A stretch of 64,000 nucleotides of DNA from Candidatus Saccharicenans sp. (GCA_049719515.1 JBNARJ010000003.1:151241-215240), one strand, 5' to 3'. Positions 14,620-39,916 are shown, numbered from the stretch's first letter. Program-made: numbers and translations. The notes: a model not told the origin generated them from the letters alone.

Positions 14620-16401
14620 ATGAACTGGCTCAGGCTCTTTCCGCCCGAGAGTGAATCTGGTGGCGAGGCCTCGGCACCAGACGAACCCGGCCCGCTGACA
14701 AAAATTGACTGGCCCGGCTTCAACCGAGCCATTTTGTGGTCGGCTTTCTTCCATCTCATCATTTTTGTTCTTTTTTCTTTTACCACCGTCATCCGGCTGC
14801 CTTCTGCCCCGCCATCACCCTTAGCCTCAATTGAAAAAAGTGGGGCAAACGACCTGGAGCTTTTTTCTACGGCTCTTCAAGAGCTTACCAGGGATAAAGA
14901 CTGGCAGGAAAAACTTTCCCGTGTCCTTCCCACCCTGGAAGACAACAGGCTTCCAGAGCTACCGGAGCAATTCCGACTGCTCGAAGACAAAATTCCCGAC
15001 CGGGAGAAAGTTGAAATTTTTAAAAAGCTGCTTGAAGTCTATCTTACAGCTTCAACCTCAAATGAACCGGGCAGTGCTTCCGCGCCAACCGGCGCCAGCT
15101 CTTTCTTGTCTGGAGAAAACAATTTTCAGGTCAAATCCGGCGAGCGGGTGTTTCTCCGGCCTTCGGCCAGTCAGAAAGGTCAGGTTGAACTCTATGTTCT
15201 GGAAGCAAAAGCCAGCCATGAACTGGAAGCTCTTCAAAAAGCCGACAGCCTGCGTTCGGCCCCTGCTTTGATTGGGCCCGGGCAGAGCGTTAGGTTAAAC
15301 TTATCCGGTCATTACGCTGAAGTCCCGGCCGAATATTACTACCGACGTTCTCCGTTTGAAGAAATCCTGGCCCGCGGCTCTTACCTTTTTTCCATTGTAC
15401 GGGGCTTTCCGAAAGTTTCATCCGGAAAGGCCTCCGAAGAAGAAATAAAAAAGCCCCCGCTTCCACAAATATTTCCCCAGGGTGAATTTCAGGTTATTTA
15501 TTATGGTCAAGTTGAAATTCCCCTTGCCCGAACTGAAACTTGCCCAAAAGATGACAGGCCACCTCTGGACCTCAAACCAGAAGAATGGAACAAAAAGCTT
15601 GACGCTCTGATGGTTGACCCGGAAGAAATTCAGTTTGCCCGGTTTGAAAAAGATTATCTCCAGAAATACAGCTGGCAGGACGCGCGGCTGGCTCAATTCA
15701 CCAGGAATTTCATCAACTCCAACCTGAACGGAGTTTTCCTTGTTGAAGATGAATTCACCTCGGCTTTTGACAGCCTGGAAGAACTTTTCTACAAAAAAAC
15801 TATTTTTGAGAGAATGGCCGCTCTGGTAGAAAAACAGCCGCCTTCACCGGTCAGGGACGAGTTAATGTTTTGCCTGGCTTCCTCGCTCGACTTAGAGAGA
15901 AGGGTCATAACCCACTTAGAAAAGGCTTACCCTCAGGCCAGTGAAATATGCCTCAGAAAATATCCTCTGCCCCACGTTCATTATTCGCTTTCAAAAGCCT
16001 ATGTGCTCAAGAAGATGTATGAAGAATTGCTGGCTGAAATCAAAAGGTTGGGTTTTTATTCCTGGGACGAAGTTGAGAAAAAATATTTAGAAAAAGAACT
16101 GGCCATTTATCAGGTTCTGGCAGAAAGAGGCGGTCAAACCCGCGCCAGAGCCCTTTATGCCATTGGCCTTACTTACTGGGAAGAAGGCCAGGCCGACCAG
16201 GCCATCAAAACCTGGCAGCAGATTGAAGAAAAGGGCTGCCCGGATTATGTTTCCAGCCTGCTAAAAGTAATCAGAGAAGCGCCCTCGGCGACCATTTACA
16301 CTTACATCGACAACGAATTAAACTACCAAACCGCCAAAAACACAAAATATCTTTACCGCCGACAGCAGCAATTTCATAAATGGGCCAGACGCCGTTTCTG
16401 A
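14620..16401 (+). CDS. Hypothetical membrane-anchored protein
   Basis: 593 aa with one N-terminal TM helix (FFHLIIFVLFSFTTVI), a Pro/Ser-rich linker, and a C-terminal TPR-like helical segment. Confidence 0.6.
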   Translation: MNWLRLFPPESESGGEASAPDEPGPLTKIDWPGFNRAILWSAFFHLIIFVLFSFTTVIRLPSAPPSPLASIEKSGANDLELFSTALQELTRDKDWQEKLSRVLPTLEDNRLPELPEQFRLLEDKIPDREKVEIFKKLLEVYLTASTSNEPGSASAPTGASSFLSGENNFQVKSGERVFLRPSASQKGQVELYVLEAKASHELEALQKADSLRSAPALIGPGQSVRLNLSGHYAEVPAEYYYRRSPFEEILARGSYLFSIVRGFPKVSSGKASEEEIKKPPLPQIFPQGEFQVIYYGQVEIPLARTETCPKDDRPPLDLKPEEWNKKLDALMVDPEEIQFARFEKDYLQKYSWQDARLAQFTRNFINSNLNGVFLVEDEFTSAFDSLEELFYKKTIFERMAALVEKQPPSPVRDELMFCLASSLDLERRVITHLEKAYPQASEICLRKYPLPHVHYSLSKAYVLKKMYEELLAEIKRLGFYSWDEVEKKYLEKELAIYQVLAERGGQTRARALYAIGLTYWEEGQADQAIKTWQQIEEKGCPDYVSSLLKVIREAPSATIYTYIDNELNYQTAKNTKYLYRRQQQFHKWARRRF

Positions 16402-22349: not shown

Positions 22350-23759
22350 TTATTTTAAAACTTCATCAGCTTTGGCCTTGATTATTTCAAGCGCCTGGCG
22401 CACATGCCGTTCTTCAGTTGTGCGCTGCCCAACAACCAGCCGCAAAGTATATTTTCCGTTTAAAGTGGTATGCGTCAGGAATACCCGGCCAGTACTGTTT
22501 ATGGCTTCGAGCAACCTCTGGTTAAGCGCATTAAGTTCTTCTTCCGGCCGTCCGTCATTGAGCCGGAAGCAGACCAGGCTGAAATAAACGGGGGCCAGGA
22601 TTTCAAACCTCCGGTCCTGTTTGAGTTCATCACGGAAAAGCTCGGCTAAATGTATGTGCCTGCGGATAATTTTCTTGATCCCTTCCACGCCGTAATCGCG
22701 GATGACAAACCAAAGCTTGAGGGCGCGGAAGCGGCGGCCGAGCTGAATCCCCCAGTCTCGAAAGTTCTTCACCACGGCATCCACTCCGGTCTTCAGGTAC
22801 TCGGGATGGATTTCAAAAGTCCTGGTTAATTGCCGCGCATCCCGGACAAAAAAGGCTGAACAATCAAAATTGGTCAACATCCATTTGTGCGGGTTAAAAA
22901 CCAGAGAATCGGCATATTCCACACCTTCCAGAACCCAGCGCTTTTCAGGCAGAATGGCCGCTGTGCCGGCATAGGCCGCATCCACATGCAACCATACCCC
23001 GTATTTGCGGCAAATTTCACCGATGGGCTTCAAAGGGTCCACCGCACCGGAGGAGGTGGTGCCGACGGTGGCCACCACACAGGCCGGCCGATAACCGGCT
23101 CTTAAATCTGCCTCTATGGCCTTTTCCAGCTCCCCGGGTATCATGGCAAATTCATCATCCACCGGGATGTAGACCAGGTTTTTCTTTCCGAAACCGGCAA
23201 TTTTCGCCCCCTTTTCCACGCTTGAATGGGCCTCGCGGGAAGCATAAACCCGAAGAACTCCGGAAAATCCTTGCTCGTTGACCGTTTGTCCGGTGGCTTT
23301 CTCCCTGGCGGCCAGAAGCGCGCAGAGAGTTGCGGTGGAAGCGGTGTCCTGGATAACGCCTGCATAGCCATCCGGCAGCCCGATCATCTGGCGCAGCCAA
23401 TCCATGACCACTTCTTCCAGCTCAGTGGCTGAAGGAGAAGTCTGCCAGACCATGCCCTGGATGCCCAACCCGGCCGAAAGCAGCTCTCCAAGTATCGAAG
23501 CCGGGCTGTTATTGGAGGGGAAATAGGCAAACCAGCCGGGGTGCTGCCAGTGGGTCAGGCCGGGCACGATGATTTTTTCAAAATCTTCCATTATCCGGTC
23601 GAGGCCCTCCGGGTGAAGAGGTGGAGAAGCAGGAAGCTGTGATTTTATTTCGCCGGGCTTAACGGTTGATTTTACCGGGTAATTTTCCACTTTTTCCAAA
23701 TAATCTGCTATCCAATCAATCAACTGGTAGCCATATTTTCGAAATTCTTCCTTTTTCAT
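22350..23759 (-). CDS. Pyridoxal-dependent (group II) amino-acid decarboxylase
   Basis: Aromatic-L-amino-acid/tyrosine decarboxylase family with the NPHKWMLTNFDCSAFFVRD PLP-lysine region. GGAGG RBS. Confidence 0.88.
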   Translation of the reverse strand: MKKEEFRKYGYQLIDWIADYLEKVENYPVKSTVKPGEIKSQLPASPPLHPEGLDRIMEDFEKIIVPGLTHWQHPGWFAYFPSNNSPASILGELLSAGLGIQGMVWQTSPSATELEEVVMDWLRQMIGLPDGYAGVIQDTASTATLCALLAAREKATGQTVNEQGFSGVLRVYASREAHSSVEKGAKIAGFGKKNLVYIPVDDEFAMIPGELEKAIEADLRAGYRPACVVATVGTTSSGAVDPLKPIGEICRKYGVWLHVDAAYAGTAAILPEKRWVLEGVEYADSLVFNPHKWMLTNFDCSAFFVRDARQLTRTFEIHPEYLKTGVDAVVKNFRDWGIQLGRRFRALKLWFVIRDYGVEGIKKIIRRHIHLAELFRDELKQDRRFEILAPVYFSLVCFRLNDGRPEEELNALNQRLLEAINSTGRVFLTHTTLNGKYTLRLVVGQRTTEERHVRQALEIIKAKADEVLK

Positions 23760-23968
23760 GGTTCATTCCTCCAATTTTCAGGGCCGATTTATAAGATTTT
23801 AAGCCCTTTTATGGCCATTTTGAGCTCCAACGTAAGAATTCTAACACCAGAGGCTGCTATTTTTAAAGCATTTTTGCTCAAAATTGAACCATAAGCTGCT
23901 TTTTAGTGAGTCATTTATTCACCCTGGGTTGATTTTTTCCGTAATATTCAAAAAAAAGATGATTTTCC

Positions 23969-23997
23969 TTGACTTCATAAAATTAATATGGTATAAT
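23969..23997 (+). promoter_or_regulatory. Near-consensus sigma70 promoter (TTGACT-17-TATAAT)
   Basis: -35 TTGACT at 23969-23974, an exact 17 nt spacer, and -10 TATAAT at 23992-23997. No plus-strand CDS lies downstream. Confidence 0.55.
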
Positions 23998-24004
23998 TAT
24001 AAAT

Positions 24005-24239
24005 GTAGTTGGCGAGAGGGAAAAATAAATTTAATCAAGAATTCGGTTGCTTGTATTTTGGTATTTTCTTAAAATTCCTGAAAATTTTCTCAAAACAGAA
24101 ACCAATTTCTTTTTAGGCAGTTAATAATATTGGAAAAGAAAAAAGGTTTCTGGCATGTTTAAACTAAAAGGCCTCCTTCCTTAATCCTCCTTTCTTTGCC
24201 CTTCACCTCAGGCCCTGCTTTCCCCGGCAGGGCTTTTTT
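24005..24239 (+). ncRNA. Candidate small non-coding RNA (promoter-to-terminator unit, about 235 nt)
   Basis: It is bounded by the consensus promoter and the intrinsic terminator. The largest ORF inside is 9 codons. The 3' half is a pyrimidine-rich tract carrying two CCUCC motifs (aggCCUCCuuccuuaauCCUCCuuucuuugccc). Confidence 0.4.
24211..24239 (+). terminator. Rho-independent terminator
   Basis: GGCCCUGC-uuucccc-GGCAGGGC (8 bp GC-rich stem) followed by UUUUUU. Confidence 0.65.
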
Positions 24240-24484
24240 CGGCTGATCGGGATTATTCGTGGATACCTATGGAATTTATTTCTACGGACGTGGAAAGCCG
24301 AGCTTAAATATTAGATGGCCTGCTCCATCAGTTGTAATCCATAGATTTTTATCAAATTAACCGGTTATCCAATCATCGCCAGCCTCAGTTTACCAGGGCA
24401 TATCTATCTGTAGAAAATGTTATTTTCTAAAACCTCTTTGTAGTCTTTTTGATTTTCTGGCTGGCAAAAAATTACAAACCCTTT

Positions 24485-25828
24485 TCAGGCAGAAGTCTTT
24501 TCAATTTTTTCTTTTCTGTAATAGTAGACGTAAATTGATTCCATAAGCGCGCCGGCGGTTACCAGCCCGAGAAGGAAAACGGGCAAATTCAGCGCCAGAA
24601 GCCCGAACACTAAGGTAGCAAAGAAATCACGGCGCAGGGCAAAAGCCAGTTTGGCCGCCAGGCGGTCGGCCAGAGAAACGTCTTTTTTGCTCTGCCCCTG
24701 AGCTTCCACCTGCTTGGCCACCAAATATATTTTGTTCCCGATTCCGGCCTTTTTGGTCAGGTGGTAAAGGTTAAAATAATACCAGCTGACCGAACCTAAA
24801 AAGAGGCCAAGCATCCATAAAAAAATTGAGTTTCCTGTGTTCCGGTATAAGCCAATGGCCAGAGCGCTGAAAAATAAAATATAAGTCAGGGCGTCAAAAA
24901 TTACATCAAGCAGCCCGCCCTTTTCTGAAGTCTGGTAAGTCAGCCTGGCCACTTCACCATCGCAGCCGTCGAAAATGCTGGAAAACTCAAAAAGAAACCC
25001 GCCGGCTAAAAAATGCCAGTAATTCTTACCGGAAGCGCAAAAAGCGGCGGCGGATATGCCAATCAGAAAATTAATCAGGGAAAGCAGGCTTGGTTTTACC
25101 CGAAGCGGAGCCAGGAAACGCGTGAAAAATAAAGACACCCGACGGTTAAAATGGCGGGCGATAAAACCATCCTGCGGTTTTCTGGCGCTGGCCAGTAACA
25201 TTTTTATGGCTTTTTTCCTGGCCTCGGGTGAGTTAATCTTTATTAACCAGCCAGATAGCAGCCTGACAATTTCGGCCGAGCGGTGTTCGATGAGCCAGGC
25301 CGTCAGCTTTTCTTCATCTGGCTGACCGTGGCCATTTTCCCAGGCTTCCGTTAAAACTGGCCAGACATCTGACGGGCAAAAGGCCAGGTCCAAACCGGAT
25401 GGCCTCTGGTTGGCTGGTTGTGTTTCATCTGCGGTAAAAATCAGCGGCCGGTTTGTATCTGATTTTGTCTCTTTAATAAAGTCAAAGACCTTTTCCGAAA
25501 GAACCAGGTCACCGGAAAGCAGCCAGAACCCTCGTTCAGAGATTATCGGGTTGAGGGGGCTGATATTTTCATCATTCTTGCCACAAGCTGGCGTAAGATA
25601 TGTCAGCTTAATCCCACGCGCTTCAATTCTTTTTTCACTCGCCACTGACTGAACAAGCTCTTCTTCTCGGGTATCACCCTGCGCGAGCAGGATAATATTT
25701 TTTAAACCGGCCTGAGCAGCCACCAGCACGAGTCTCATGATAACCGACAAACCGAGTATTTCAACGCGGGAATGGTCTTTTAAAATGATAACAGCCGTGC
25801 TACTCAATGGCTTCACTTCTCCTTTCAT
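24485..25828 (-). CDS. CDP-alcohol phosphatidyltransferase family protein with an N-terminal nucleotidyltransferase-like domain (IPCT/DIPPS-like architecture)
   Basis: The C-terminal membrane domain matches the CDP-OH-P-transferase signature D-G-x2-A-R-x8-G-x3-D-x3-D exactly (DGCDGEVARLTYQTSEKGGLLDVIFD). An N-terminal soluble domain of about 230 aa resembles a MobA/NTP-transferase fold but lacks a canonical Gly-rich loop. Confidence 0.8.
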   Translation of the reverse strand: MKGEVKPLSSTAVIILKDHSRVEILGLSVIMRLVLVAAQAGLKNIILLAQGDTREEELVQSVASEKRIEARGIKLTYLTPACGKNDENISPLNPIISERGFWLLSGDLVLSEKVFDFIKETKSDTNRPLIFTADETQPANQRPSGLDLAFCPSDVWPVLTEAWENGHGQPDEEKLTAWLIEHRSAEIVRLLSGWLIKINSPEARKKAIKMLLASARKPQDGFIARHFNRRVSLFFTRFLAPLRVKPSLLSLINFLIGISAAAFCASGKNYWHFLAGGFLFEFSSIFDGCDGEVARLTYQTSEKGGLLDVIFDALTYILFFSALAIGLYRNTGNSIFLWMLGLFLGSVSWYYFNLYHLTKKAGIGNKIYLVAKQVEAQGQSKKDVSLADRLAAKLAFALRRDFFATLVFGLLALNLPVFLLGLVTAGALMESIYVYYYRKEKIEKTSA

Positions 25829-26823
25829 CGTTCAGATTTTATTTTCACCCTGCCTATCAAAACAATCAATAAAGTCAGGGCGGCAAAACAAAGCTTTCGA
25901 GCCCGGCGCACCAGACCAATGCTCAGCCCGGCGGCCGCCGGATAGCCAACCGTCATGGCGGCCAGCAGATTGGCACCCTCGGCTGCCCCCCACTGGCCGG
26001 GAATGATAAAAAAGGCGGTGTTGATAACCACCACAAAGGCTGAAATAAAAAGCACCTTGATCAAATCTACAGGAAGACCAAGAGCTTTAATGATAACCAG
26101 AACTTCCAGCGCCCCCAGAAGCCGGGCCATCACGTGCAGGGTCAAAGCCAGGATAAGTTTGGCCGGAGAATGTTTGAACAGAAGGCGCATGTTAGCATCA
26201 AGAGCTTTTATCATATCCTCTTTTTCCAAAAACCATTTTTCCAGCCTCGGTGATAAATGGCTTAATTTGGCAAAAACTTTGTGTGTTCCACGGAATTGCA
26301 GGGCAAAAAGAGCCACCACCCCGACAATGGTAACCGAAAGAACCACCAGAGAAGAAATTTTCATTCCTTCCGGGATTTTAAGATAGATTAAAGAAATCAA
26401 AAGACTGCCCGCCAGGTAGATAAAAGAAGCAGCGTATTCAATGGTCTTGTCAAATACCACTCCAGGAATACCTTCATGCAGAGGAGAATGCTTTTTGATG
26501 ATGACCGCCCGGGCGGCCTCCCCGCCAAAATTGGCTGTCGGGAGCAGGGTGTTAAAGCCATCCGCCAGAATCTTGGCCCTAAATAAGGCCAGCAGCGGCA
26601 CTCTCTGAAAAGCCCCCTGAATGATTGACCAGGCCAATGCCTGAAGAAAAAGCCAGCCGAAGGCAATCAGACAGCAGACAGCAAACCACCAGCCCACCCG
26701 AGAAAGGTTGCCCAGGGTCTCCTGAAGGCCAACCCTGTAAATCAGCAGGGCAAAAAGCAGCAGGCCAAGAAAAATGGATATTAATTGAAGCCTATTCTTC
26801 TTATGTCTATCCATTCTGTTCAT
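25825..26823 (-). CDS. Flippase-like UPF0104 membrane protein (lysyl-PG-synthase TM-domain family)
   Basis: 332 aa with 8 predicted TM helices. Its stop overlaps the downstream start by 4 nt. Confidence 0.75.
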   Translation of the reverse strand: MNRMDRHKKNRLQLISIFLGLLLFALLIYRVGLQETLGNLSRVGWWFAVCCLIAFGWLFLQALAWSIIQGAFQRVPLLALFRAKILADGFNTLLPTANFGGEAARAVIIKKHSPLHEGIPGVVFDKTIEYAASFIYLAGSLLISLIYLKIPEGMKISSLVVLSVTIVGVVALFALQFRGTHKVFAKLSHLSPRLEKWFLEKEDMIKALDANMRLLFKHSPAKLILALTLHVMARLLGALEVLVIIKALGLPVDLIKVLFISAFVVVINTAFFIIPGQWGAAEGANLLAAMTVGYPAAAGLSIGLVRRARKLCFAALTLLIVLIGRVKIKSER

Positions 26824-27128
26824 CCACTGCGGCTTATTTGAATATTATCTCCAACCGGCTTACTTTTTTTTACTCTATCTTTAATACCTTTAGCTTTCAA
26901 GCAGGCACAGTTCAGAAACCTATTAATAAAAAGCAATCATTAACAACCGTAACTTTTTTCAGCATTCTACCAGATGTCCTCCAGCCTCGAAAATAAAGCC
27001 TGATCTCTTTTTTCCTCAACTCCCGGGCCGTATCTTCTGCCGCGAAAAGCGCCCGTATGTTCCAGGCATTAAAATTATCTCTGCCTGCCTTTTCATCTTC
27101 CGGCCCGAAAAATCCTTTTTCCCTCAGC

Positions 27129-28811
27129 TTAAATATTTAATTTAAGCCCGAGGTAGAAACGCTTTTCATGCTGGGTGTCTTCAAAGTCATGAATTATGCC
27201 CCACCTTTTAACCCATTCTAACCTGGATTCAACAGCTAAGCCTGTCCCTTTAATCCTATACTGCACCCCCAGCCCGTAATGCCATCTTGAATCCCTTAAA
27301 GGGGAATCGTCAAGCAGGTCATTTTGAAAACGGTCACGCCCCTGAATAGAATAATAATAAAAATAATTCAAAAACGCCTGAAAACGGAGCGGGTCATATG
27401 CCAGCTCGACCAGGCTTTTTAAAGCTGGTCCGAAAGCGTAATAATAGCCATAATACTGGAGCGTTGTCTTCATCCCCCGGATGTCATGGTCAACCGAATA
27501 TTTATTCAGCGGAAGAGAATTTATCAGGCCGAAGCTCAGATAACCTTCACCCCGAAAATGGAACTGCCACGGCCGGGCAAAATAAGCATAATCAAAAACA
27601 GGTCCCAGGATATGGGCAGCTCCCAATTTATCCCGAAAATCGCGCGGCAGCTCAAAATGGAAATCCTCCGTCTGGTCTATTGAAACTTTTCCGGCGTCAT
27701 AATCCGTAACCGGCCTTTTTATGTAAACTTCAAGCGAAGACCCCAGCCCAACAAAATAGCTGTACCCCCGGTGCTCATCGGAAATGTCTTGGGCAAACCA
27801 GCCGAAAGGTACTATCTTGGCCAGCAGATTAAACTCCTCTCTTTCCCGCCCGTGATACATCATCTCCAAATCAAGCTGGCTGAAGACAGGCCGGTTAAAT
27901 TTTTCTCTTATTTTTCCCGGAATTCCATATTCCTCCCTGGTGATAATCCTGGAATTAAAACTTACATCCAGATTACCAACCCCCTGGCTGCTGCTTGAGG
28001 TGGGCGAATGCCGATAGCCCAGGAAGAAAAACACATCCTGAACCTTCGGGTTGTAAGCATGAAAGTAAGGCGGCACAGCTCGTTTTCGGTCAAACCAGCC
28101 GTTAATCTTCATAAAAGGATTAAACCAGGAAAGCAACCGGACATAGCGATTGGGTGAATTAGTTAAATATTGCCCCAGCTGAAACCAGGCTTCCCCGATG
28201 GGAATGCCTCCCAGGCCGGTCATGATATTGTCATTGGTGGAAATAACCTCCCGCCACTCGACAAAAAATTCCCAGCCCAGAGAACCGCCGATTGAATAAA
28301 GAGCTGACTGCCACCAGTCGAGGTTGTTACTCCTGGCAAATTCGTAATAAATCATTCCGGCTAACGAATGCCGCCAGTTGAGCCCAAAGTCATTCGAGTC
28401 AAACCGCTGTGCTTCAAAGGTAAAAAACCGCCTCTTCTGGTCATGCCAGGTAAACTGATATTGCCAGTCCTCAATGAATTTGCTGTATTTTATGTTGTAA
28501 TTTATTCCCGAGTAAGCAAAAAGGCCAAAAAACTCTAAAAAAGCTCTCCATCTGTGCTGCGGTGGCTGGCTTATCTTTTGGAACTTTGCCGGGTCCGTGA
28601 TAAACGGACCGTCAGCAAAGGGAGAGCCGAGGGAAAAATTCAGGCCGGTCAAGGCCCTGCCAACTGGTTGTTGCTTGAGTGCCGACAGGCGGAGAGAAAA
28701 ATTGGCGATAAAAGAATCAATTTCAGCCGGCTTTTCCTTTTTCTGGTCGGCATACACATTCAAGGCGAGGAATAGCGCCAGCAAGGTGATTAAAATAAGC
28801 GTTTTTCTCAT
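27129..28811 (-). CDS. Secreted or outer-membrane Trp/Tyr-rich protein of unknown function
   Basis: Signal peptide (MRKTLILITLLALFLALNVYA) and a high aromatic content with alternating patterns that suggest a beta-rich fold. ATG 28811 is preferred over TTG 28829. Confidence 0.6.
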   Translation of the reverse strand: MRKTLILITLLALFLALNVYADQKKEKPAEIDSFIANFSLRLSALKQQPVGRALTGLNFSLGSPFADGPFITDPAKFQKISQPPQHRWRAFLEFFGLFAYSGINYNIKYSKFIEDWQYQFTWHDQKRRFFTFEAQRFDSNDFGLNWRHSLAGMIYYEFARSNNLDWWQSALYSIGGSLGWEFFVEWREVISTNDNIMTGLGGIPIGEAWFQLGQYLTNSPNRYVRLLSWFNPFMKINGWFDRKRAVPPYFHAYNPKVQDVFFFLGYRHSPTSSSSQGVGNLDVSFNSRIITREEYGIPGKIREKFNRPVFSQLDLEMMYHGREREEFNLLAKIVPFGWFAQDISDEHRGYSYFVGLGSSLEVYIKRPVTDYDAGKVSIDQTEDFHFELPRDFRDKLGAAHILGPVFDYAYFARPWQFHFRGEGYLSFGLINSLPLNKYSVDHDIRGMKTTLQYYGYYYAFGPALKSLVELAYDPLRFQAFLNYFYYYSIQGRDRFQNDLLDDSPLRDSRWHYGLGVQYRIKGTGLAVESRLEWVKRWGIIHDFEDTQHEKRFYLGLKLNI

Positions 28812-31377: not shown

Positions 31378-34065
31378 ATGGAAGCCATAGAAACTCTTGA
31401 TAAGATATTTAAACCGCAGCGCATTGCTCTGGTCGGGGTAAGCCCTAACCCGAAAAGCGTCTCCGGGAAAATTCTGTCTAACCTCATTACCGGCGGGTTC
31501 CGGGGCGTTGTTTACCCGGTAAATCCGGCGGTAGAAGCCGTCATGGGTATTCCCTGTTTCCCTTCGGTCAAAGATTTGCCAAAAACACCTGACCTGGCCG
31601 TCATTACGGCCCCTGCTCCTCAGGTGCCAAAGTTGGTGGCTGAGTGCGGCCAGGCTGGCATCCTTGGCATCATTATAATTTCCGCCGGTTTTAGAGAAAC
31701 CGGTCCTCAGGGCCGGGCTTTAGAACAACAAATCCTCGAAGAAAAAAAGAAGTACCCGGGGATGCGCATCCTGGGCCCCAACTGCCTCGGGGTCATCTCG
31801 CCCGGCTTCCAGCTCAACGCCAGCTTTGCCGCTTCCATGCCGCTCAACGGCCACATTGCTTTCATTTCTCAGTCAGGTGCCCTTTGCACCTCCATCCTCG
31901 ACTGGTCCCTGGAAGAAAAAATCGGCTTTTCCTATTTTGTATCCATCGGTAATGCTATAGACATAGATTTTGGCGACCTGATTGACTATTTCGGTGAAGA
32001 CGAAAACACCAAATCAATTTTGCTTTACATAGAATCAATCTCAAACCCAAGGCGCTTTATGTCGGCGGCTCGCGCCTATGCCCGTACCAAACCCATAATT
32101 GCTTATAAGGCCGGGCGGTTTCCAGAATCAGCCGAGGCTGCTTCCTCTCACACTGGCGCCCTCGCCTCAGAAGATGCCATCTACGATGCGGCTTTTAAGA
32201 GAGCCGGCATGGCCCGGGTGTTTGAAATCAGCGAAATGTTCGACGTGGCCGAACTGATTGGCCGCCATAAAATTCCCAAGGGTCCACGCCTGGTCATTGT
32301 CACTAACGCCGGCGGCCCGGGGGTGATGGCCTCCGACGCTTTGATTGAAGCCGGAGGCCAGCTGGCTGAACTTGCGCCTCAGACGATTGAAGTTTTGAAT
32401 CAGGCTTTGCCGCCGGCCTGGTCACACGGCAATCCGGTTGATGTCCTGGGCGATGCCAAGTCGAAGACAGTGGCCAAAGCGGTTAATGCCGTCTTAAACG
32501 ACCCAAACACAGATGCTGTCCTCCTGATTATTACCCCCCAGGCCATGACCAACCCCCCAGGTATCGCCAAAGAAATCATCCCCCTGGCGGCTGAAACGCA
32601 AAAGCCCATCCTGGCTGCCTTCCTGGGTGGCCCGAGCATGCGTGAGGCGGTTAAACTGATGAACGAGGCCGGCCTACCAACTTACACCACGCCGGAACAG
32701 GCGGTGCGCGCCTTCATGATTCTGGTCAACTACGCCCGCAACTTAGAAGACCTCTATGAAACTCCGCGGGAAATCTCGGTAGAATTCCCGGTTGAAAGAG
32801 AAAAAATTCGCCAGGAAATAATTCCCATTTTGAAAAACGGGCCAGAAATCTTAGATGAACAAACTTCCAAAAAAATTCTGGAAGCCTACGGCATCCCCAC
32901 CACCCTACCGCGGGTTGCCCGAACGAAAGAAGAAGCGGTGACCATCAGCCGGGAAATTGGATTTCCGGTCGTGCTTAAAATTTACTCACCAGACATCCCT
33001 CACAAAACCGACGTCGGCGGGGTGGCGCTCGACCTGGAAGATGAGCACATGGTGGAAGTGGCTTTTGAGCGCATGATGAATTCCGTCAAAGAAAAAGCTC
33101 CTGCAGCCCGGATAGAAGGTGTAACCGTCCAGAAAATGGTCAGGCTAAAAGATTCCATAGAAATGATTCTGGGAAGCAAGAAAGACCCTACTTTTGGAGC
33201 GGTCATCATGGTTGGCTCGGGCGGAGTAACCACCGAGGTGCTCGGCGACCGTTCACTCTGCTTCCCGCCCCTCAACGAAAGGTTGGCCCGCCGGTTGCTT
33301 GAACAGCTAAAAACCTGGCCGCTTCTTAAAGGTTACCGGGGCCGGCCTGGAGTCAACATAGACAGGCTGGTTGAAATAATCATCCGTTTTTCTTATCTGG
33401 TAGCTGATTACCCGGAGATTAAAGAAATCGACATCAATCCGCTGCTGGCCGGTGCTTCCGGCGCGGTGGCGCTCGATGCCCGGATTGTGGTCGACCGCAC
33501 GGTTGAGCCGGGTAAGGCCAGGCCGTATGAACACCTGGTGCTCAGGCCTTATCCGGAAGAATTTATACGCAAGGCCACCATGCGCGACGGTACCGAGATA
33601 ACCCTTCGCCCGATTCGGCCTGAAGATGAACCGCTCTGGCTGGAGCTCCTGGGAAGCTGTTCCAAAGAAACCATCTACTCTCGCTTTAGATATTTCTTCT
33701 TCTGGCAATCCCATGAGGTGGCTTCCAGATACTGTTACATCGATTATGACCGGGAAATGGCCATCGTGGCGGAAATCCAGGAAGGAAACAAAAAGAAAAT
33801 CCTGGGCATCGGGCGGTTGACCGCTGACCCGACCAGGACGGTGGCCGAATACGCCGTTTTGGTGCAGGACAACTGGCAGAACAAGGGGCTGGGCGGCCTG
33901 CTCACCGATTACTGCACCGAAATTGCCCGGGCCTGGGGCGTTAAAAAAATCGTCGCCTACACCACAACGGATAACCCGCGCATGATTGCCGTGTTTAAAA
34001 AGCGAAATTTTGAAATACGGCAGGACCCGGATTCAACTCTGGTGGAAATTCAAAAGATTTTGTAA
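31378..34065 (+). CDS. Pat/PatZ-like protein lysine acetyltransferase (NDP-forming acyl-CoA synthetase domains fused to a GNAT domain)
   Basis: 895 aa with an N-terminal CoA-binding domain (IALVGVSPNPKSVSGKI), succinyl-CoA-synthetase-like and ATP-grasp domains, and a C-terminal GNAT domain. Confidence 0.85.
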   Translation: MEAIETLDKIFKPQRIALVGVSPNPKSVSGKILSNLITGGFRGVVYPVNPAVEAVMGIPCFPSVKDLPKTPDLAVITAPAPQVPKLVAECGQAGILGIIIISAGFRETGPQGRALEQQILEEKKKYPGMRILGPNCLGVISPGFQLNASFAASMPLNGHIAFISQSGALCTSILDWSLEEKIGFSYFVSIGNAIDIDFGDLIDYFGEDENTKSILLYIESISNPRRFMSAARAYARTKPIIAYKAGRFPESAEAASSHTGALASEDAIYDAAFKRAGMARVFEISEMFDVAELIGRHKIPKGPRLVIVTNAGGPGVMASDALIEAGGQLAELAPQTIEVLNQALPPAWSHGNPVDVLGDAKSKTVAKAVNAVLNDPNTDAVLLIITPQAMTNPPGIAKEIIPLAAETQKPILAAFLGGPSMREAVKLMNEAGLPTYTTPEQAVRAFMILVNYARNLEDLYETPREISVEFPVEREKIRQEIIPILKNGPEILDEQTSKKILEAYGIPTTLPRVARTKEEAVTISREIGFPVVLKIYSPDIPHKTDVGGVALDLEDEHMVEVAFERMMNSVKEKAPAARIEGVTVQKMVRLKDSIEMILGSKKDPTFGAVIMVGSGGVTTEVLGDRSLCFPPLNERLARRLLEQLKTWPLLKGYRGRPGVNIDRLVEIIIRFSYLVADYPEIKEIDINPLLAGASGAVALDARIVVDRTVEPGKARPYEHLVLRPYPEEFIRKATMRDGTEITLRPIRPEDEPLWLELLGSCSKETIYSRFRYFFFWQSHEVASRYCYIDYDREMAIVAEIQEGNKKKILGIGRLTADPTRTVAEYAVLVQDNWQNKGLGGLLTDYCTEIARAWGVKKIVAYTTTDNPRMIAVFKKRNFEIRQDPDSTLVEIQKIL

Positions 34066-34454: not shown

Positions 34455-35717
34455 ATGACAGCCAAAAAATTTAGAAAACTCATCAACTGGGCTCCCGTAT
34501 TTCTTTTCAGCTGCTTTCTTTCTCTGGCCACTTTAAGGCTGCCGGCTCAGACTCAGGATGAAGGGAAAATGAGCCTGAGTTTTACCGGTTATGTTAAAAC
34601 CGACCTTATCTATGACACGCGGCAAACGGTCAGCATCCGTGAAGGGCATTTTCTGCTCTACCCTAAGGACCGGCTGCTGGATGTGGAAGGGAAAGATTTA
34701 AATGCCAAGGATACTTTTCACATACTCTCCATCCAGACCAGGCTGGCCCTTAAAGCCACCGGACCGAAAGCTTTCGGGGCAGCCACTTCCGCCTATGTGG
34801 AAGGAGAATTTTTCGGTCACTCCGAAGGCGATATTAACGGCTTCAGGTTGAGACATGCTTACCTGAAGCTCAGCTGGCCAAAGACCGAGCTGATGATCGG
34901 TCAGTTCTGGCACCCGATGTTCATAACAGAAAGTTACCCGGAAGTAATTTCTTTCAACACCGGCGCGCCTTTCGAGCCATTCTCCCGCGCTCCGCAGGTG
35001 CGCCTCACCTGGACTGAAAAGAAATTATCGTTTTCCGTGACCGCTCTTTCTCAGAGAGACTTTGCTTCAACCGGGCCGGAAGGAGTCAGCACGGTTTATA
35101 TTCGCAATGCCGCTTTTCCGGAGATAGATTTCAAAGCGGCTTATGCCGGAAAAGACTGGCTGTTCGGGGCAGGCGTCAATTCTCTGAAAATTGTTCCCCG
35201 CCTGGTCACTTATGCAGGCTATCAAGCCGATGAATCTGTCACTTCGCTGGCCGGTTACTTTTTTGGCCGTTTTAAAACCGAACTGCTGACCTTTAAAGCA
35301 CAGGCGGTTTACGGTGGTAACCTTCACCATCTGACCATGCTCGGCGGTTACGGAGTTACGGGAATTGCTGACTACACCTCTCTCAGATGGGAATACGCTC
35401 CCATTAACACGAGCTCAGCCTGGCTTGAAATCCAGACGAACGGGAGCCAGTGGCAGGCCGGGCTTTTTGGCGGTTACAGTAAAAATTATGGAGCCAGGCA
35501 GGAAATTACCGGCTCAATCTACAGCCGGGGAGACCTCATCGACCATCTGTTCCGGCTGGCGCCGCGTTTGGTATTAAATTCCGGCAAAATCCGCTTCGCC
35601 CAGGAAATCGAGCTAACCTCGGCCGCTTACGGCCACCGCGACCAGAAAGCCCGGGTCATTCCTGACCGCACGGTTACCAACGTCCGTTTTCTTTTCGCGG
35701 CCTACTACTTTTTCTGA
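34455..35717 (+). CDS. Putative outer-membrane beta-barrel protein (porin-like)
   Basis: Signal peptide, an alternating amphipathic pattern, and the C-terminal ...FAAYYFF signature of OMPs. Confidence 0.55.
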   Translation: MTAKKFRKLINWAPVFLFSCFLSLATLRLPAQTQDEGKMSLSFTGYVKTDLIYDTRQTVSIREGHFLLYPKDRLLDVEGKDLNAKDTFHILSIQTRLALKATGPKAFGAATSAYVEGEFFGHSEGDINGFRLRHAYLKLSWPKTELMIGQFWHPMFITESYPEVISFNTGAPFEPFSRAPQVRLTWTEKKLSFSVTALSQRDFASTGPEGVSTVYIRNAAFPEIDFKAAYAGKDWLFGAGVNSLKIVPRLVTYAGYQADESVTSLAGYFFGRFKTELLTFKAQAVYGGNLHHLTMLGGYGVTGIADYTSLRWEYAPINTSSAWLEIQTNGSQWQAGLFGGYSKNYGARQEITGSIYSRGDLIDHLFRLAPRLVLNSGKIRFAQEIELTSAAYGHRDQKARVIPDRTVTNVRFLFAAYYFF

Positions 35718-36206: not shown

Positions 36207-37454
36207 TTACATTCCGTACATCTCAATGATTTCCTGCTTTGTCTTGTGCAGGATGTTGAACTTCTTGCCAACCTTTATAAAAGCATCAAGGGCTTTATCC
36301 AGATGGTGGATTTCATGGGCGGCAGAAATCTGCGTCCTGATCCGTGCCTGCCCCTGGGGCACAACCGGGAAGAAGAAACCGATGGCATAAATGCCCTCTT
36401 CATAAAGAGCCTTGGAAAACTCCTGCGCCAGCCTGGCGTTGAACAGCATTATGGGGACAATCGGTGTGTCACCTTCTTTCAGGATGAACCCGGCTTCTGT
36501 CAGACCCTTTCGCCAGTATTCGGTATTTTTTTCCAGCTTGTCGCGGCGCTCGGTGGTGGCCGATAAAATTTCCAGCACCTTCAGCACGGCTCCCACGATA
36601 ACCGGCGCGATCGTGTTGGAGAAAAGATAGGGACGAGCTTTCTGCCGGCACATCTCGACTGTTTCCGCCCGGCCGGAAACGCAGCCGCCGGTGGCACCGC
36701 CCAGAGCTTTACCGAAAGTTGTCGTGATGATGTCAATCTTGCCCATGACGCCGTATTTTTCATGCGTGCCGCGACCCGTCTTGCCGATGAAACCGGTAGC
36801 ATGGGAATCATCCACCAGGAGCATGGCGTTGTACTTCTCGCACAACTCGACCATTTTGTCCAGCCTGGCCGTGTCGCCGTCCATGGAAAAAACACCATCG
36901 GTCACCACCAGCCTCAGCCGTTTGTCCTGGTACATCTGCAGCTTCTGCTCCAGGTGCTCCATGTCCGAATGTTTGTACGTGTCGTGCATGGCACTGCACA
37001 GCCTGATGCCGTCTATCAGAGAAGCATGCACCAGACGGTCCGAGATGATAACATCGTCCTTAGTCAGGATGGCTTCAAACACACCGGCGTTGGCATCCAT
37101 GCAGGAGGGAAAAAGAATCGTATCCTCTGTGCCGAGAAATTCCGTAACTTTCTTTTCCAGTTCTTTGTGGATATCCTGGGTGCCGCAGATAAAGCGCACC
37201 GAAGACATGCCAAAACCTCGGGTCTCCAGGGTTTCGTGGGCCGCCCTGATTACTTCCGGGTGGCTCGACAGCCCGAGGTAATTGTTGGCACACATGTTGA
37301 TGACTTTTTTCAAAGAAGAACCTGCGGGAAATTCAACCTCTATATCGGCTGCCTGGGGGGAGTGGATAAACCGTTCCTCTTTAAAAAGGCCGGCCTCTTT
37401 CAGGGCCTTTAACTGGTCCTGATACAATTGCCTGACATTATCCGGAAAAGCCAT
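36207..37454 (-). CDS. kbl: Alpha-oxoamine synthase, Kbl-type (glycine C-acetyltransferase/2-amino-3-ketobutyrate CoA ligase-like)
   Basis: Collinear with E. coli Kbl from recall (CANNYLGL, DGVFSMDG, PLP-lysine TFGKALGGATGG, PYLFSN, GFFFPVVPQGQARIRTQ). Perfect AAAGGAGG RBS. Confidence 0.85.
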   Translation of the reverse strand: MAFPDNVRQLYQDQLKALKEAGLFKEERFIHSPQAADIEVEFPAGSSLKKVINMCANNYLGLSSHPEVIRAAHETLETRGFGMSSVRFICGTQDIHKELEKKVTEFLGTEDTILFPSCMDANAGVFEAILTKDDVIISDRLVHASLIDGIRLCSAMHDTYKHSDMEHLEQKLQMYQDKRLRLVVTDGVFSMDGDTARLDKMVELCEKYNAMLLVDDSHATGFIGKTGRGTHEKYGVMGKIDIITTTFGKALGGATGGCVSGRAETVEMCRQKARPYLFSNTIAPVIVGAVLKVLEILSATTERRDKLEKNTEYWRKGLTEAGFILKEGDTPIVPIMLFNARLAQEFSKALYEEGIYAIGFFFPVVPQGQARIRTQISAAHEIHHLDKALDAFIKVGKKFNILHKTKQEIIEMYGM

Positions 37455-37520
37455 AGTTTCCTCCTTTCTATGGTTCTGCCGCCTGGCTGGAATTCTTTCC
37501 GGTCAAGCGGAATTTCTTGC

Positions 37521-37769
37521 TCAGGCTTTGGTAAATTCCCGGACCAGTTCGGCAATCTTGTTAACCGAATCAAAAGCTTCGGGCGTGGCTTTTTCATCAG
37601 GTATCTGGATGTTGTACTTGTTCTCCAGGAACCTCTTCAGGGAAACCATGGAAAAAGAGTCCACAATCCCGCCGGAAATCAGTGGTGTGTCATAGGTAAT
37701 GGGGTCCGAGTCCGGTTCAAGATACTCATTGATGATGTAATTCTTGATTACTTCTTTCAATTCATCCAT
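37521..37769 (-). CDS. Acyl carrier protein
   Basis: 82 aa with the phosphopantetheine-attachment motif GGIVDSFSMVSL. AAGGAG RBS. Confidence 0.85.
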   Translation of the reverse strand: MDELKEVIKNYIINEYLEPDSDPITYDTPLISGGIVDSFSMVSLKRFLENKYNIQIPDEKATPEAFDSVNKIAELVREFTKA

Positions 37770-37823
37770 CGTTACACTCCTTTTTATTAATTTTTATTCA
37801 ACCTGACTATTTTTTCAACCACT

Positions 37824-39527
37824 TCAATCATTTTCCAGGGTCGAGGTATCGCCTATTTCCTCTCCCCATTCCTTGGCATGAAGGATTCGTCTCATGATTT
37901 TGCCGCTTCTGGTTTTGGGCAGAGCATCGATGAACTCTATTTCCTGGGGCATGGCCAGAGGAGACAGCTTCTTGCGGATAAAGTTCATGATATCAAGCTC
38001 CAAATCCTTGGAAGGAGTAAAACCGGGCTTCAAAGTGACAAAGGCTTTGACGACTTCCATGTTAATCGGGTCCGGTTTGCTGACCACGGCCGACTCGGCT
38101 ACCGCCGGGTGCTCCAGCAGGGCCGACTCCACTTCAAACGGGCTCACCAGGTGGCCGCCCGTGTTTATAACATCATCATCCCTTCCGACAAACCAGAAAT
38201 AGCCTTCTTTATCTATGCGGGCCCGGTCGCCGGTCAGGTACCAGCCGTTCCGGAATTTGTTCCTGTAAGCTTCTTCGTTGTTCCAGTAAGTTCTCATCAT
38301 TGATGGCCAGCCGGGCTTTAGACCGATCAGCCCGATTCGCCCCGGCTCCGGGTAAGGCTCGTGATTATTCGGGTTCAAAACGGTGGCCGTTATGCCAGGA
38401 AACGGCCGTCCCATTGAACCCGGCTTAACCGGCATGCCCGGGAAGTTGGTTATGACAATGCAACCCGTTTCCGTCTGCCAGTAGGTATCGTGGAAAGGTT
38501 TGCCGAAAACTCGAATGGACCAGTTTACCGCTTCCGGGTTCAACGGCTCGCCGACGCTGGCCAGGTGTCTTAACGAGGACAGGTCGAACTTCTTTATTAT
38601 TTCATCCCCGGCTTTCATCAGCGACCGGATAGCCGTTGGTGCCGTATACCAGACGGTCACCCGGTGTTTTTCGATAAACCTGTACCAGGCTTCCGCCGAA
38701 AAGCCGCTGTCCAGCACACACTGGGTAACCCCCAGGCTGAACGGGCCGATTATGCCATAAGATGTGCCGGTAACCCAGCCCGGGTCAGCCGTGCACCAGT
38801 AGATGTCATCATCTCTTAAATCCAGAACCCATTTGGCCGTCAGATACTGAGAAATCAAAGAGTAATGCACATGCTGCACTCCCTTGGGCATTCCGGTCGT
38901 GCCCGAAGTATAATGCAGCACGGAGGGGGTTTCAGCATAGGTGGGATAAACGGGATAATCCTCCACCTTTTCTGACCCTTCCATGGAAAAGCCGACTTCT
39001 CTTTCCTGAAGCGGTGTCTTCCCATCATAATCAACGATTATGATATGCCTGAGGTGAGGCAGGCGGTCTCTTATTTTTCTGACCTTGGCCACATGTTTTT
39101 TTTGCGTGAAAATGGTGGAAGTCTGAGCATTTTCCAGACGAACAAAAAGAGATTCTTCGCCGAAGGCAGAAAAAAGAGGCTGAACAATGGCTCCGGTTTT
39201 GAGAATTCCCAGAAACCCGATATAGAGTTCCGGCACGCGGTCCATAAACAGACAAACTCTTTCGCCCGCTTTAACACCGAGGTCAGTCAGGAAGCGGGCC
39301 ACCGTGTTGGAATAAAGGCGAACATCGTTGTAGGTAAAAACTTTCTTTTCGCCTGTAAACCCTTCCCAGATTAAAGCCACTTTTTCCGCTTTTCCTAACT
39401 GACAGATGCGGTCCGAGCAATACCAGCCGATGTTGATGACCTGGCCGGGTTGATAACCGAGCTCCTGCTCGGAAATGGCCCAGGAAAAATTTTTTACTCT
39501 TTCTTCGTAAGAACCGAAATTTGACAT
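37824..39527 (-). CDS. Acs-family adenylate-forming acyl-CoA/acyl-ACP synthetase (acetyl/propionyl-CoA synthetase-like)
   Basis: YTSGTTGMPKG; WYLTGD...GRDDDVINTGGHLVSPFEVE; C-terminal SGKIMRR. GGGGAGG RBS. Confidence 0.8.
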   Translation of the reverse strand: MSNFGSYEERVKNFSWAISEQELGYQPGQVINIGWYCSDRICQLGKAEKVALIWEGFTGEKKVFTYNDVRLYSNTVARFLTDLGVKAGERVCLFMDRVPELYIGFLGILKTGAIVQPLFSAFGEESLFVRLENAQTSTIFTQKKHVAKVRKIRDRLPHLRHIIIVDYDGKTPLQEREVGFSMEGSEKVEDYPVYPTYAETPSVLHYTSGTTGMPKGVQHVHYSLISQYLTAKWVLDLRDDDIYWCTADPGWVTGTSYGIIGPFSLGVTQCVLDSGFSAEAWYRFIEKHRVTVWYTAPTAIRSLMKAGDEIIKKFDLSSLRHLASVGEPLNPEAVNWSIRVFGKPFHDTYWQTETGCIVITNFPGMPVKPGSMGRPFPGITATVLNPNNHEPYPEPGRIGLIGLKPGWPSMMRTYWNNEEAYRNKFRNGWYLTGDRARIDKEGYFWFVGRDDDVINTGGHLVSPFEVESALLEHPAVAESAVVSKPDPINMEVVKAFVTLKPGFTPSKDLELDIMNFIRKKLSPLAMPQEIEFIDALPKTRSGKIMRRILHAKEWGEEIGDTSTLEND

Positions 39528-39541
39528 GGCACCTCCCCGTT

Positions 39542-39916
39542 TTATTTCTCTAAAATTACGATGGCCACAGCATATGTTTTAAGATGAGACAGCGAAACAT
39601 GAGCCCGGCTCAATCCCTTGCTTTCGAAAATCTCCTTCGCCCGCCCGAATAACTCAAGCACCGGTTGACCTGTTTCCAGGTTGCGAATTTCAACCTCAGA
39701 AAATTTAACCCCTCCGCTCCAGCCGGTACCCAGAGCTTTCATAAAAGCTTCCTTGGCCGCAAACCGGGCAGCATAATGCAGAGCCGGAGAATGCTTGCTC
39801 TCACAATAAGCTATCTCCAGGCTGGTAAAAAGTTTCTCTTTCAGGCCAGGCGTTCTTTTCAGCTTTTCTTCGACCCGGTCCACTTCAATAAGGTCTACGC
39901 CAATCCCCGAAATCAA
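39542..39916 (-). CDS. acpS: Holo-[acyl-carrier-protein] synthase (4'-phosphopantetheinyl transferase)
   Basis: (M)ISGIGVDLIEVDRV...AAKEAFMKALGTG. TTG start with an AGGAGG RBS 5 nt upstream. Confidence 0.85.
   Translation of the reverse strand: MISGIGVDLIEVDRVEEKLKRTPGLKEKLFTSLEIAYCESKHSPALHYAARFAAKEAFMKALGTGWSGGVKFSEVEIRNLETGQPVLELFGRAKEIFESKGLSRAHVSLSHLKTYAVAIVILEK

Follow-up and report, generated by a model that had tools for sequence, protein, structure and literature searches.

The locus described here raises the question of how a membrane enzyme fused to a cytidylyltransferase-like domain without a nucleotide-binding loop obtains its activated substrate, and what it makes from it. The locus lies in a stretch of 64,000 nucleotides (the window) of Candidatus Saccharicenans sp. 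(GCA_049719515.1 JBNARJ010000003.1:151241-215240). It consists of two genes, one for a 447-aa fusion protein (the transferase), with an N-terminal domain related to inositol-1-phosphate cytidylyltransferase (IPCT) and a C-terminal CDP-alcohol phosphotransferase (CDP-AP) domain, and one for a 332-aa membrane protein of the PplT/UPF0104 family. The reading developed below, to which we give an even chance, is that the pair constitutes a CDP-inositol-type head-group transferase and a lipid translocator, with the cytidylyltransferase acting in trans.

A preliminary description of the window had placed these genes, together with a third one for a 560-aa protein, on the minus strand, and all three were found at the positions proposed (Table 1). 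The translational coupling that it had claimed for the first two was read directly from the junction (...GAA CGA TGA AAG G), where the stop and start codons share a 4-nt ATGA; in relatives the PplT and transferase genes overlap likewise, by 4 or 11 nt. A deposited 14-kb contig (GCA_049717495.1, here L068) was 100% identical to the window over 6.6 kb, and the 560-aa sequence was identical to an NCBI-listed protein of a Candidatus Saccharicenans metagenome-assembled genome (MAG), which places the organism in the Aminicenantes.

Predicted domains of the fusion protein

The membrane half carries the CDP-alcohol phosphotransferase motif that had been attributed to it. Residues 246-357 matched CDP-OH_P_transf (PF01066) in Pfam with 49.1 bits (cutoff 22), and the signature in transmembrane (TM) helices TM2-TM3 (Table 1) was complete, with all eight of its residues invariant in 26 homologs. 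The predicted model contained helices at residues 222-242, 246-266, 270-297, 302-331, 335-361, 400-412 and 416-446. The signature and the six-TM core fold assign the protein to class I of the CDP-alcohol phosphotransferases, and a conserved cytoplasmic insertion of ~35 residues was found between TM4 and TM5.

The nearest sequences of solved structure in phmmer searches were the IPCT/DIPPS of Archaeoglobus fulgidus (4mnd, E 1.8e-19) and AF2299 (4o6m, E 3e-17), both alignments beginning at about residue 193, in the linker and juxtamembrane helix. IPCT/DIPPS (NF041135) was also the top-ranked NCBIfam model, with 98.3 bits against a cutoff of 580 and over residues 193-348 only. The models for phosphatidylinositol-phosphate (PIP) synthase and archaetidylinositol-phosphate synthase (NF045883, NF040950) gave 30.1 bits against 170 and 51.6 against 180, and those for PssA (TIGR00473) and PgsA (TIGR00560) gave 28.5 against 107 and 19.7 against 109.1. 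The IPCT/DIPPS-like architecture previously proposed was thus upheld for the C-domain, with 98 bits compared to 28 for PssA and 20 for PgsA; clustering with these housekeeping enzymes, which had been named beforehand as the result that would speak against it, was not observed, as their scores fell far under the cutoffs.

The positions D220-G221, N228-R229-x2-S232 and R399-R400-D401 were common to the window protein and to true IPCT::CDP-AP fusions. The juxtamembrane N228-R229-x2-S232 motif (JM1) was present in DIPPS, AF2299 and the true fusions and not in PIP synthase; in this region DIPPS and AF2299 have a small hydrophilic pocket for the donor, and PIP synthase a hydrophobic groove (PMC4634129). 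As judged from its sequence, the transferase half belongs to the DIPPS/AF2299 subfamily of six-TM CDP-alcohol phosphotransferases and is catalytically intact.

In sugar-nucleotidyltransferases, a Gly-rich loop with Arg/Lys holds the phosphates of the NTP and acidic residues hold the metal. The N-terminal domain of the window protein had no match in Pfam or NCBIfam, a profile of 17 N-domain sequences gave nothing significant against PDB sequences, and phmmer against 1.84 billion representative proteins yielded 11 matches, nine to similar fusions of 435-473 aa and two to short fragments. The identity of the domain was resolved solely by structure prediction and profile-profile comparison. Against the IPCT-like enzymes that adjoin its relatives, the profile-profile comparison gave a probability of 97.6% (E 4.8e-12, 179 columns), and a Foldseek search with the predicted model matched both domains of AF2299 (4o6n/4o6m; 3e-11 to 6.5e-11) with a target-normalised TM-score of 0.69-0.70.

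When the domain was aligned with active IPCTs, a 13-residue deletion just after strand 1 was seen to take out the GxGSR loop, the next Lys was not kept, and G.G[STK]R was absent from the first 60 residues of the window N-domain. A second deletion, of 27-30 residues, takes out the VDxR...DDVTKV...IGK segment, and in place of the xDH, DTG and WLDVDD motifs of IPCTs stand variable residues; at the xDH position, the window keeps the Asp, where other family members have E, N, G or R. The GxG(T/S)R...K signature and the acidic motifs of an active IPCT were therefore not found in the window protein. As the nucleotide-binding loop and the acidic motifs are lost, the N-domain, which appears to keep the cytidylyltransferase fold, is best described as a putative pseudo-enzyme. 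The preliminary description had called this half a degenerate nucleotidyltransferase (NTase) without a Gly-rich loop and had proposed a structure model as a check; the model gave an IPCT/AF2299-type fold in which the nucleotide-binding residues are not retained.

Related loci and the PplT partner

The genomic context was compared over 68 related loci, typed by tblastn and hidden Markov models (HMMs) built for the purpose. Type A comprised 14 loci from Saccharicenans and other Aminicenantes, with 38-95% identity to the window protein and the gene order PplT, transferase, GT4 (family 4) glycosyltransferase. The GT4 gene was present in 13 of the 14, the exception being the window, an absence that had previously been missed, and neither IPCT nor inositol-3-phosphate synthase (MIPS) was found within 10 kb in any type-A locus.

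Type B (15 loci from other Aminicenantes, Acidobacteriota and a few other bins; 28-40% identity) had an IPCT-like NTase directly upstream in every case, as a free protein (267 aa in L010) or as a fusion with PplT (584 aa in L004/L005), and MIPS immediately upstream in 7/15. These partner NTases were classed as IPCT-like because the GxGSR loop was present, the top NCBIfam model was the N-terminal part of IPCT/DIPPS and the top PDB matches were 4jd0 and 2xme. The type-B transferases themselves also bear the degenerate N-domain. The earlier suggestion that the cytidylyltransferase could be supplied in trans is thus supported strongly, though indirectly, as sister loci encode a presumably active IPCT beside, or fused to, a UPF0104 protein and often together with MIPS.

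Type C consisted of 17 true IPCT::CDP-AP fusions, in which the loop read G.G[STK]R in 12, was a variant (GDGGR, GKGER or GKSSR) in three and belonged to cut or mis-started sequences in two. A Saprospiraceae MAG in this group (L043:9269-11695, plus strand) encodes an 808-aa triple fusion of an NTase with a near-canonical GKSSR loop, a CDP-AP and an LPG_synthase_TM domain, a Rosetta-stone protein that, from its predicted domains, physically links all three activities. Finally, in a deltaproteobacterial group of five loci (type D), L051 had by Pfam the genes pseudoNTase::CDP-AP, HAD, NTase, PplT and MIPS, and the other four matched this set by HMM, one of them (L056) without a detectable PplT. 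In three of the loci collected (L032:6472-7658, L060:10519-10930 and L016:499-1793), MIPS or the transferase was split across frames, possibly as pseudogenes or through sequencing-indel artefacts.

The 332-aa partner matched LPG_synthase_TM (PF03706) over residues 14-314 with 97 bits (cutoff 33.4) and TIGR00374 with 52.4 bits (cutoff 43.2); with HpnL (TIGR03476), a hopanoid-associated UPF0104 subfamily, it stayed at 128.7 bits, under the cutoff of 195.65. PplT lay directly upstream of the transferase in all 13 type-A loci that included that flank and in 13 of the 15 type-B loci. Considering all pseudo-NTase loci (types A and B and the delta/L053 group), PplT adjoined 31 of 34, compared with none of seven other loci with a short N-domain and only two of the 17 true IPCT::CDP-AP fusions, one of the two being L043.

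Selection on the pair was estimated by the Nei-Gojobori method from one pair of sequences, the window and its 94.7%-identical relative L067 from another sample, with small counts. The dN/dS ratio was 0.02 for PplT, 0.05 for the catalytic domain and 0.45 for the dead N-domain. PplT and the catalytic domain are therefore under strong purifying selection, and the pseudo-domain is relaxed yet not neutral, as expected of a scaffold.

Operon history and the GT4 gap

In a neighbour-joining tree of the catalytic domain, type A was monophyletic (100/100), was joined with the type-B sequence of L010 in 92/100 and formed a group with type B in 99/100, which places type A inside the IPCT-linked type B. 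The same flanking genes, moreover, adjoin the cluster in the window and, among the type-B loci, those in L004 and L026; they are a block for a Kbl-like oxoamine synthase, an acyl carrier protein (ACP) and an Acs-like ligase, and a gene for an 895-aa acetyl-CoA synthetase, and from them the window and type-B loci are taken to be orthologous. The ancestral operon of the pair would have held MIPS, then an active IPCT (free or PplT-fused), PplT and the transferase, and with MIPS and IPCT in it the ancestral donor would have been CDP-inositol. In the simplest history, an IPCT::CDP-AP fusion lost its IPCT activity, the task passing to a separate IPCT that was often tethered to PplT; the Saccharicenans branch then dropped IPCT and MIPS from the operon and acquired GT4, which the window lineage finally deleted.

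This context also bears on the alternative that the transferase is a CDP-diacylglycerol (CDP-DAG)-dependent phospholipid synthase, similar to the synthases of PIP or phosphatidylglycerol phosphate, that uses a soluble polyol phosphate, the GT4 of the relatives being a PimA-like enzyme acting on phosphatidylinositol. Such an arrangement would mirror mycobacterial pgsA1-pimA, and the top PDB matches of GT4 do include MshA (full length) and PimA. With CDP-DAG as the donor, type-A genomes would need no cytidylyltransferase, in keeping with the 14 type-A loci in which IPCT and MIPS were missing within 10 kb. Nevertheless, the nesting of type A inside IPCT-linked type B, the NCBIfam scores well under cutoff for PIP synthase, archaetidylinositol-phosphate synthase, PgsA and PssA, and a juxtamembrane N-R-x-x-S motif that belongs with the small hydrophilic donor pocket of DIPPS/AF2299 rather than with the hydrophobic groove of PIP synthase make this alternative quite unlikely.

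The position occupied by GT4 in relatives is taken in the window by a 725-bp gap, in which neither a GT4 remnant (tblastn, E>1) nor a credible open reading frame (ORF) was found. The part at 23760-24239 aligned with the intergenic region that in L006 follows GT4, upstream of the decarboxylase (68% DNA match), and the part at 24240-24484 was lineage-specific filler without homology. The deletion of GT4 is therefore clean. The same gap occurs in L067, and its sequence is identical in L068; being common to a 94.7%-identical relative, the GT4-less arrangement is stable.

The gap also contains a candidate small RNA of ~240 nt (~23969-24242, plus strand). Its promoter is near-consensus (TTGACT-17-TATAAT with TG, 11/12) and is followed after ~210 nt by a GC hairpin (24210-24235) and a U-run, with a C/U-rich stretch of repeated CCUCC before the hairpin. 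The promoter hexamers and a ~95-nt 3' block are the best-conserved intergenic parts in L006. A search of the gap against Rfam gave only a chance microRNA match (E 0.16), and folding of the candidate gave no stability signal (z -0.26) except for the terminator hairpin.

The losses of MIPS, IPCT and GT4 could also be taken to mean that the pair is a decaying remnant without current function, on its way to becoming a pseudogene. The window is indeed the sole type-A locus without GT4, and its N-domain evolves faster (dN/dS 0.45). However, both ORFs are intact, the catalytic motif is complete, the low dN/dS values of the catalytic domain and PplT hold across two samples, and the GT4-less arrangement is shared with the 94.7%-identical relative, for which reasons we consider decay highly improbable.

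Proposed function

In the proposed transferase and translocator pair, a cytidylyltransferase encoded elsewhere would supply a soluble CDP-alcohol, most likely CDP-inositol, and the transferase would move the phospho-alcohol to an acceptor at or in the cytoplasmic face of the membrane. The polar lipid so formed would then be carried by PplT to the outer leaflet, where relatives would glycosylate it and the window lineage would not, and the dead IPCT domain may have been retained as a structural scaffold or docking surface. That the donor would be a soluble CDP-alcohol, ancestrally CDP-inositol, is suggested by the MIPS and IPCT genes of the sister group and by the DIPPS/AF2299-type juxtamembrane motif; its cytidylyltransferase must be encoded beyond the 64-kb window, or the donor must have changed. 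A lipid is the more likely product because the pseudo-NTase subfamily is nearly always paired with, or fused to, PplT, whereas true fusions of the di-myo-inositol phosphate (DIP) type are not. In addition, UPF0104 proteins are partners of lipid head-group enzymes, as in MprF, gpgSDF and Escherichia coli YbhN (clsB-ybhN operon), and Bacteroidetes that possess the analogous cluster alone make inositol phosphoceramide (PMC9246714).

Several points weigh against this proposal. IPCT, MIPS, HAD and GT4 are all missing from the 64-kb window. DIPPS and AF2299, the two relatives characterised by structure, use soluble substrates, and the six-TM CDP-AP architecture has so far been correlated with soluble acceptors (PMC4634129), so that a lipid could be made only from a lipid donor or with a lipid acceptor for which there is no precedent. 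Lipid flipping has been shown experimentally for MprF alone, the flippase activity of stand-alone UPF0104 proteins being unproven, and the 'alternative' pathway of Bacteroidetes is only predicted (PMC9246714). Finally, at the cytoplasmic end of TM4 (residues 355-359, ~24752-24766) most type-A proteins read R-Y-T-R, an RxxR similar to the acceptor-phosphate motif of PIP synthase, if the positions are structurally equivalent as presumed. In the window protein and its two closest relatives (the first two sequences GT4-less) these positions read H-L-T-K, H-L-S-K or H-F-S-K, H-L-S-K belonging to the GT4-bearing L006; since the RxxR-like positions read HxxK, the acceptor may differ in the window sublineage.

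Some of these observations would fit a compatible-solute synthase, in which CDP-inositol or CDP-glycerol and a soluble polyol phosphate are joined to an osmolyte like DIP or glycero-phospho-inositol and PplT is a mere anchor or organiser. The closest structures and the best NCBIfam model, IPCT/DIPPS and AF2299, are enzymes of soluble substrates, the six TM helices follow the rule cited above (PMC4634129), and JM1 N-R-x-x-S and TM5 R-R-D are common to the true IPCT::CDP-AP fusions. Type-B and type-D loci hold the full DIP set (MIPS, IPCT and a DIPPS-like enzyme, with an HAD phosphatase in type D), and MIPS and IPCT-DIPPS of cold subsurface bacteria have been interpreted as DIP synthesis (10.1101/536078). 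Against a solute stand the distribution of PplT, seldom near the true bifunctional fusions (2/17) and nearly always with the pseudo-NTase subfamily, gene fusions included, and the inositol phosphoceramide made by Bacteroidetes that possess the analogous cluster alone (PMC9246714). A cytoplasmic solute, moreover, hardly explains a member of a lipid-translocator family kept at a dN/dS of 0.02. On balance, solute synthesis appears unlikely.

A more specific form of the lipid proposal would make PplT an obligate partner subunit of the pseudo-IPCT CDP-APs, providing first the lipid-acceptor site missing from six-TM CDP-APs and then the flipping of the product, with the dead IPCT domain docking the PplT-tethered active IPCT. 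The result would be a Kennedy-type route, from CDP-inositol and a membrane lipid, to inositol or glyco-inositol lipids. We hold this version as a speculative one, slightly more probable than solute synthesis and still well short of an even chance. If true, PplT would play the role of the extra TM helices in eukaryotic choline/ethanolamine phosphotransferases, and Aminicenantes, other Acidobacteriota, Deltaproteobacteria and Bacteroidota would widely share a Kennedy-type pathway, distinct both from the mycobacterial PIP route and from DIP solute synthesis.

The DUF3943 protein

The 560-aa protein encoded upstream in the same orientation had been described as aromatic-rich and exported, and both features were confirmed, with a signal peptide and a W+Y+F content of 18.4% compared to 10-14% in its neighbours. 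The HMM assignment that had been suggested for it gave DUF3943 (PF13084) in Pfam, with 81.1 bits (cutoff 27) over residues 142-225. A model based on 30 homologs (pLDDT 83.7) comprised the signal peptide, a disordered linker, a helical DUF3943 domain (74-240) and a C-terminal beta-barrel (259-559), and the protein is accordingly modelled as a DUF3943 outer-membrane beta-barrel. The helical domain had many polar residues invariant in the 30 homologs (E114, D115, W116, Q125, R128, D138, N140, N145 and W146, and further H148, E181, E185, W186, S191, D194, T198 and E207), which suggests a putative enzymatic or ligand-binding site and not a passive plug.

Its inclusion in the operon, in contrast, did not hold. 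The DUF3943 gene was adjacent to the cluster only in the window lineage (L068) and in L006, the relative closest to it, and not in the other 12 type-A loci with the upstream flank or in any type-B locus, and it was rejected as a conserved operon member on this genomic context. A three-gene envelope operon, in which the DUF3943 protein would help to deliver the lipid to the outer membrane or modify it there, could be argued from the common strand, the 305-bp spacing without a clear intergenic terminator, the arrangement kept in L006 at 78% identity, and the predicted outer-membrane barrel, whose helical domain has conserved polar residues. It is very unlikely, given the absence of DUF3943 from the other loci, its ortholog in another Saccharicenans genome on the same 341-kb contig but >10 kb from the cluster, and a promoter-like site between the DUF3943 and PplT genes. 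The DUF3943 protein is thus probably not part of the system.

Gene coordinates and other genes of the window

Table 1. Coordinates of the locus and of neighbouring features in the window.
Feature	Position	Strand	Description
447-aa fusion protein	24485..25828	-	Predicted pseudo-IPCT domain and six-TM CDP-alcohol phosphotransferase, DIPPS/AF2299 type
N-domain of the 447-aa protein, residues 1-215	25184..25828	-	NTase fold homologous to IPCT, catalytic signatures gone
Juxtamembrane linker and six-TM catalytic domain, residues 216-447 and stop codon	24485..25183	-	
CDP-alcohol phosphotransferase signature D287xxD290G291xxA294R295x8G304xxxD308xxxD312	24893..24970	-	Read from the sequence
332-aa PplT/UPF0104 protein (LPG_synthase_TM; MprF flippase-domain family)	25825..26823	-	Translationally coupled to the transferase
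ATGA stop/start overlap of the PplT and transferase genes	25825..25828	-	
560-aa DUF3943 outer-membrane protein (predicted)	27129..28811 (alternative start 28829 = 566 aa)	-	Probably outside the system
725-bp non-coding gap, 35% GC	23760..24484	.	Position of GT4 in relatives
Group II PLP-dependent decarboxylase	23759..22350	-	Beyond the gap; Pfam
AcpS (124 aa), Acs-like AMP ligase (567 aa), ACP (82 aa), Kbl-like alpha-oxoamine synthase (415 aa)	36207-39916	-	

The oxoamine synthase block was used solely as a synteny marker. In L004 and L026, the synthase, ACP and ligase adjoin the MIPS-IPCT::PplT-transferase cluster, and a further oxoamine synthase paralog is present; no AcpS was detected in these two loci. 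The best match of the 82-aa ACP was an ornithine-lipid ACP model, below its cutoff. An oxoamine synthase with its own ACP alongside is reminiscent of pathways to amino-lipids or sphingoid bases, and the HMMs point to other enzymes: in NCBIfam, the synthase scored above the cutoff for glycine C-acetyltransferase and the ligase above that for acetate-CoA ligase. Sphingolipid synthesis by this block, and with it an inositol phosphoceramide product, was considered and rejected, as both enzymes scored far below the serine palmitoyltransferase cutoffs.

Three further genes on the plus strand were recorded. The acetyl-CoA synthetase (31378-34065, 895 aa), syntenic in L004, L006 and L026, is an ADP-forming enzyme (alpha and beta) fused to a C-terminal GNAT/Pat-like acetyltransferase. 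A 420-aa protein (34455-35717) with a signal peptide, the C-terminus ...AAYYFF and 74% identity in L006 had no Pfam or NCBIfam match and is probably an uncharacterised outer-membrane barrel or porin. At the thresholds used, a 593-aa ORF (14620-16401) matched no model of Pfam or NCBIfam.

Relation to known systems and significance

Of the known systems, IPCT/DIPPS of A. fulgidus (AF0263; 4MND), an enzyme of di-myo-inositol-phosphate synthesis that converts CDP-inositol and inositol-1-phosphate to di-myo-inositol-phosphate phosphate, is the one that the architecture first recalls. The window N-domain, however, is without the GxGSR loop, ~27 further residues and the acidic motifs, and consequently cannot be an active IPCT; with an NCBIfam score also far under the IPCT/DIPPS cutoff, the protein is not an equivalog of that enzyme. 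It differs further in its coupling to PplT, rare in true fusions, in the ~35-residue cytoplasmic TM4-TM5 insertion of its family, and in its host, which is not a DIP producer of the hyperthermophile type. AF2299 (4O6M/4O6N), whose physiological role is unknown, has the same type of architecture: a non-canonical cytidylyltransferase-like domain is fused there to a six-TM CDP-AP (PMC4634129), as found here, and the sequence match (E 3e-17) includes the TM5 'RDF' segment. Nevertheless, identity is only ~18%, AF2299 is archaeal and binds CDP-glycerol, no partnership with PplT is reported for it, and the window N-domain is longer (~215 residues).

In gene content, the locus falls into the broad system of the alternative inositol-lipid cluster predicted by Heaver et al. 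(2022) in Bacteroides vulgatus and Prevotella, with an NTP transferase, a CDP-alcohol phosphatidyltransferase, an HAD hydrolase, MIPS and a neighbour annotated as LPG synthase, of a pathway that is biochemically unconfirmed (PMC9246714). The same gene set, with a pseudo-NTase::CDP-AP, was found in the five deltaproteobacterial loci (L056 without PplT) and, minus HAD, in type-B loci of Aminicenantes, with the same logic of a CDP-inositol donor and a UPF0104 partner. The window retains only the CDP-AP and the UPF0104 protein, the latter being the counterpart of the LPG-synthase-annotated neighbour, and has no MIPS, NTase or HAD within its 64 kb; the likeness is one of gene content.

The pair also resembles MprF, YbhN and Pseudomonas aeruginosa gpgSDF (GT4, deacetylase and UPF0104) in placing a PF03706/TIGR00374 member in an operon with a polar head-group enzyme, plus a GT4 in relatives, but its partner is a CDP-alcohol phosphotransferase and not an aminoacyl-phosphatidylglycerol synthase or a glycosyltransferase. 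From mycobacterial PgsA1 and PimA it differs in scoring below the PIP synthase cutoff (30 vs 170), in its DIPPS-type JM1 and in having no GT4. The window module is a pared-down form of a pathway that is recognisable though little studied, and most likely builds and flips an inositol-type lipid head group. New with respect to the literature searched would be the predicted dead IPCT domain on the transferase of the alternative inositol-lipid system, the apparently near-obligate pairing or fusion of the pseudo-IPCT transferase with PplT, and a putative GT4-linked, IPCT-less subclade of which the window represents a further reduced form.

To our knowledge, inositol lipids are rare in bacteria and the only route to them that is biochemically established runs through CDP-diacylglycerol and PIP. 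For gut Bacteroidetes a second route, based on CDP-inositol, has been predicted and never demonstrated (PMC9246714). The message of the window itself is modest, that of a reduced member whose substrate supply must sit elsewhere in the genome. For the family, the comparison indicates that the transferases of the predicted route form one coherent subfamily, which bears a dead cytidylyltransferase domain, accompanies PplT (fusions included) and is present in several uncultured phyla, and it offers a small defined gene set for reconstitution in a heterologous host, namely MIPS, IPCT, PplT and transferase plus, optionally, GT4 or HAD. These loci are among the clearest genetic contexts for probing the role of stand-alone UPF0104 'flippases', and their domain history would be that of a pseudo-enzyme domain kept after its activity had shifted to a separate gene.

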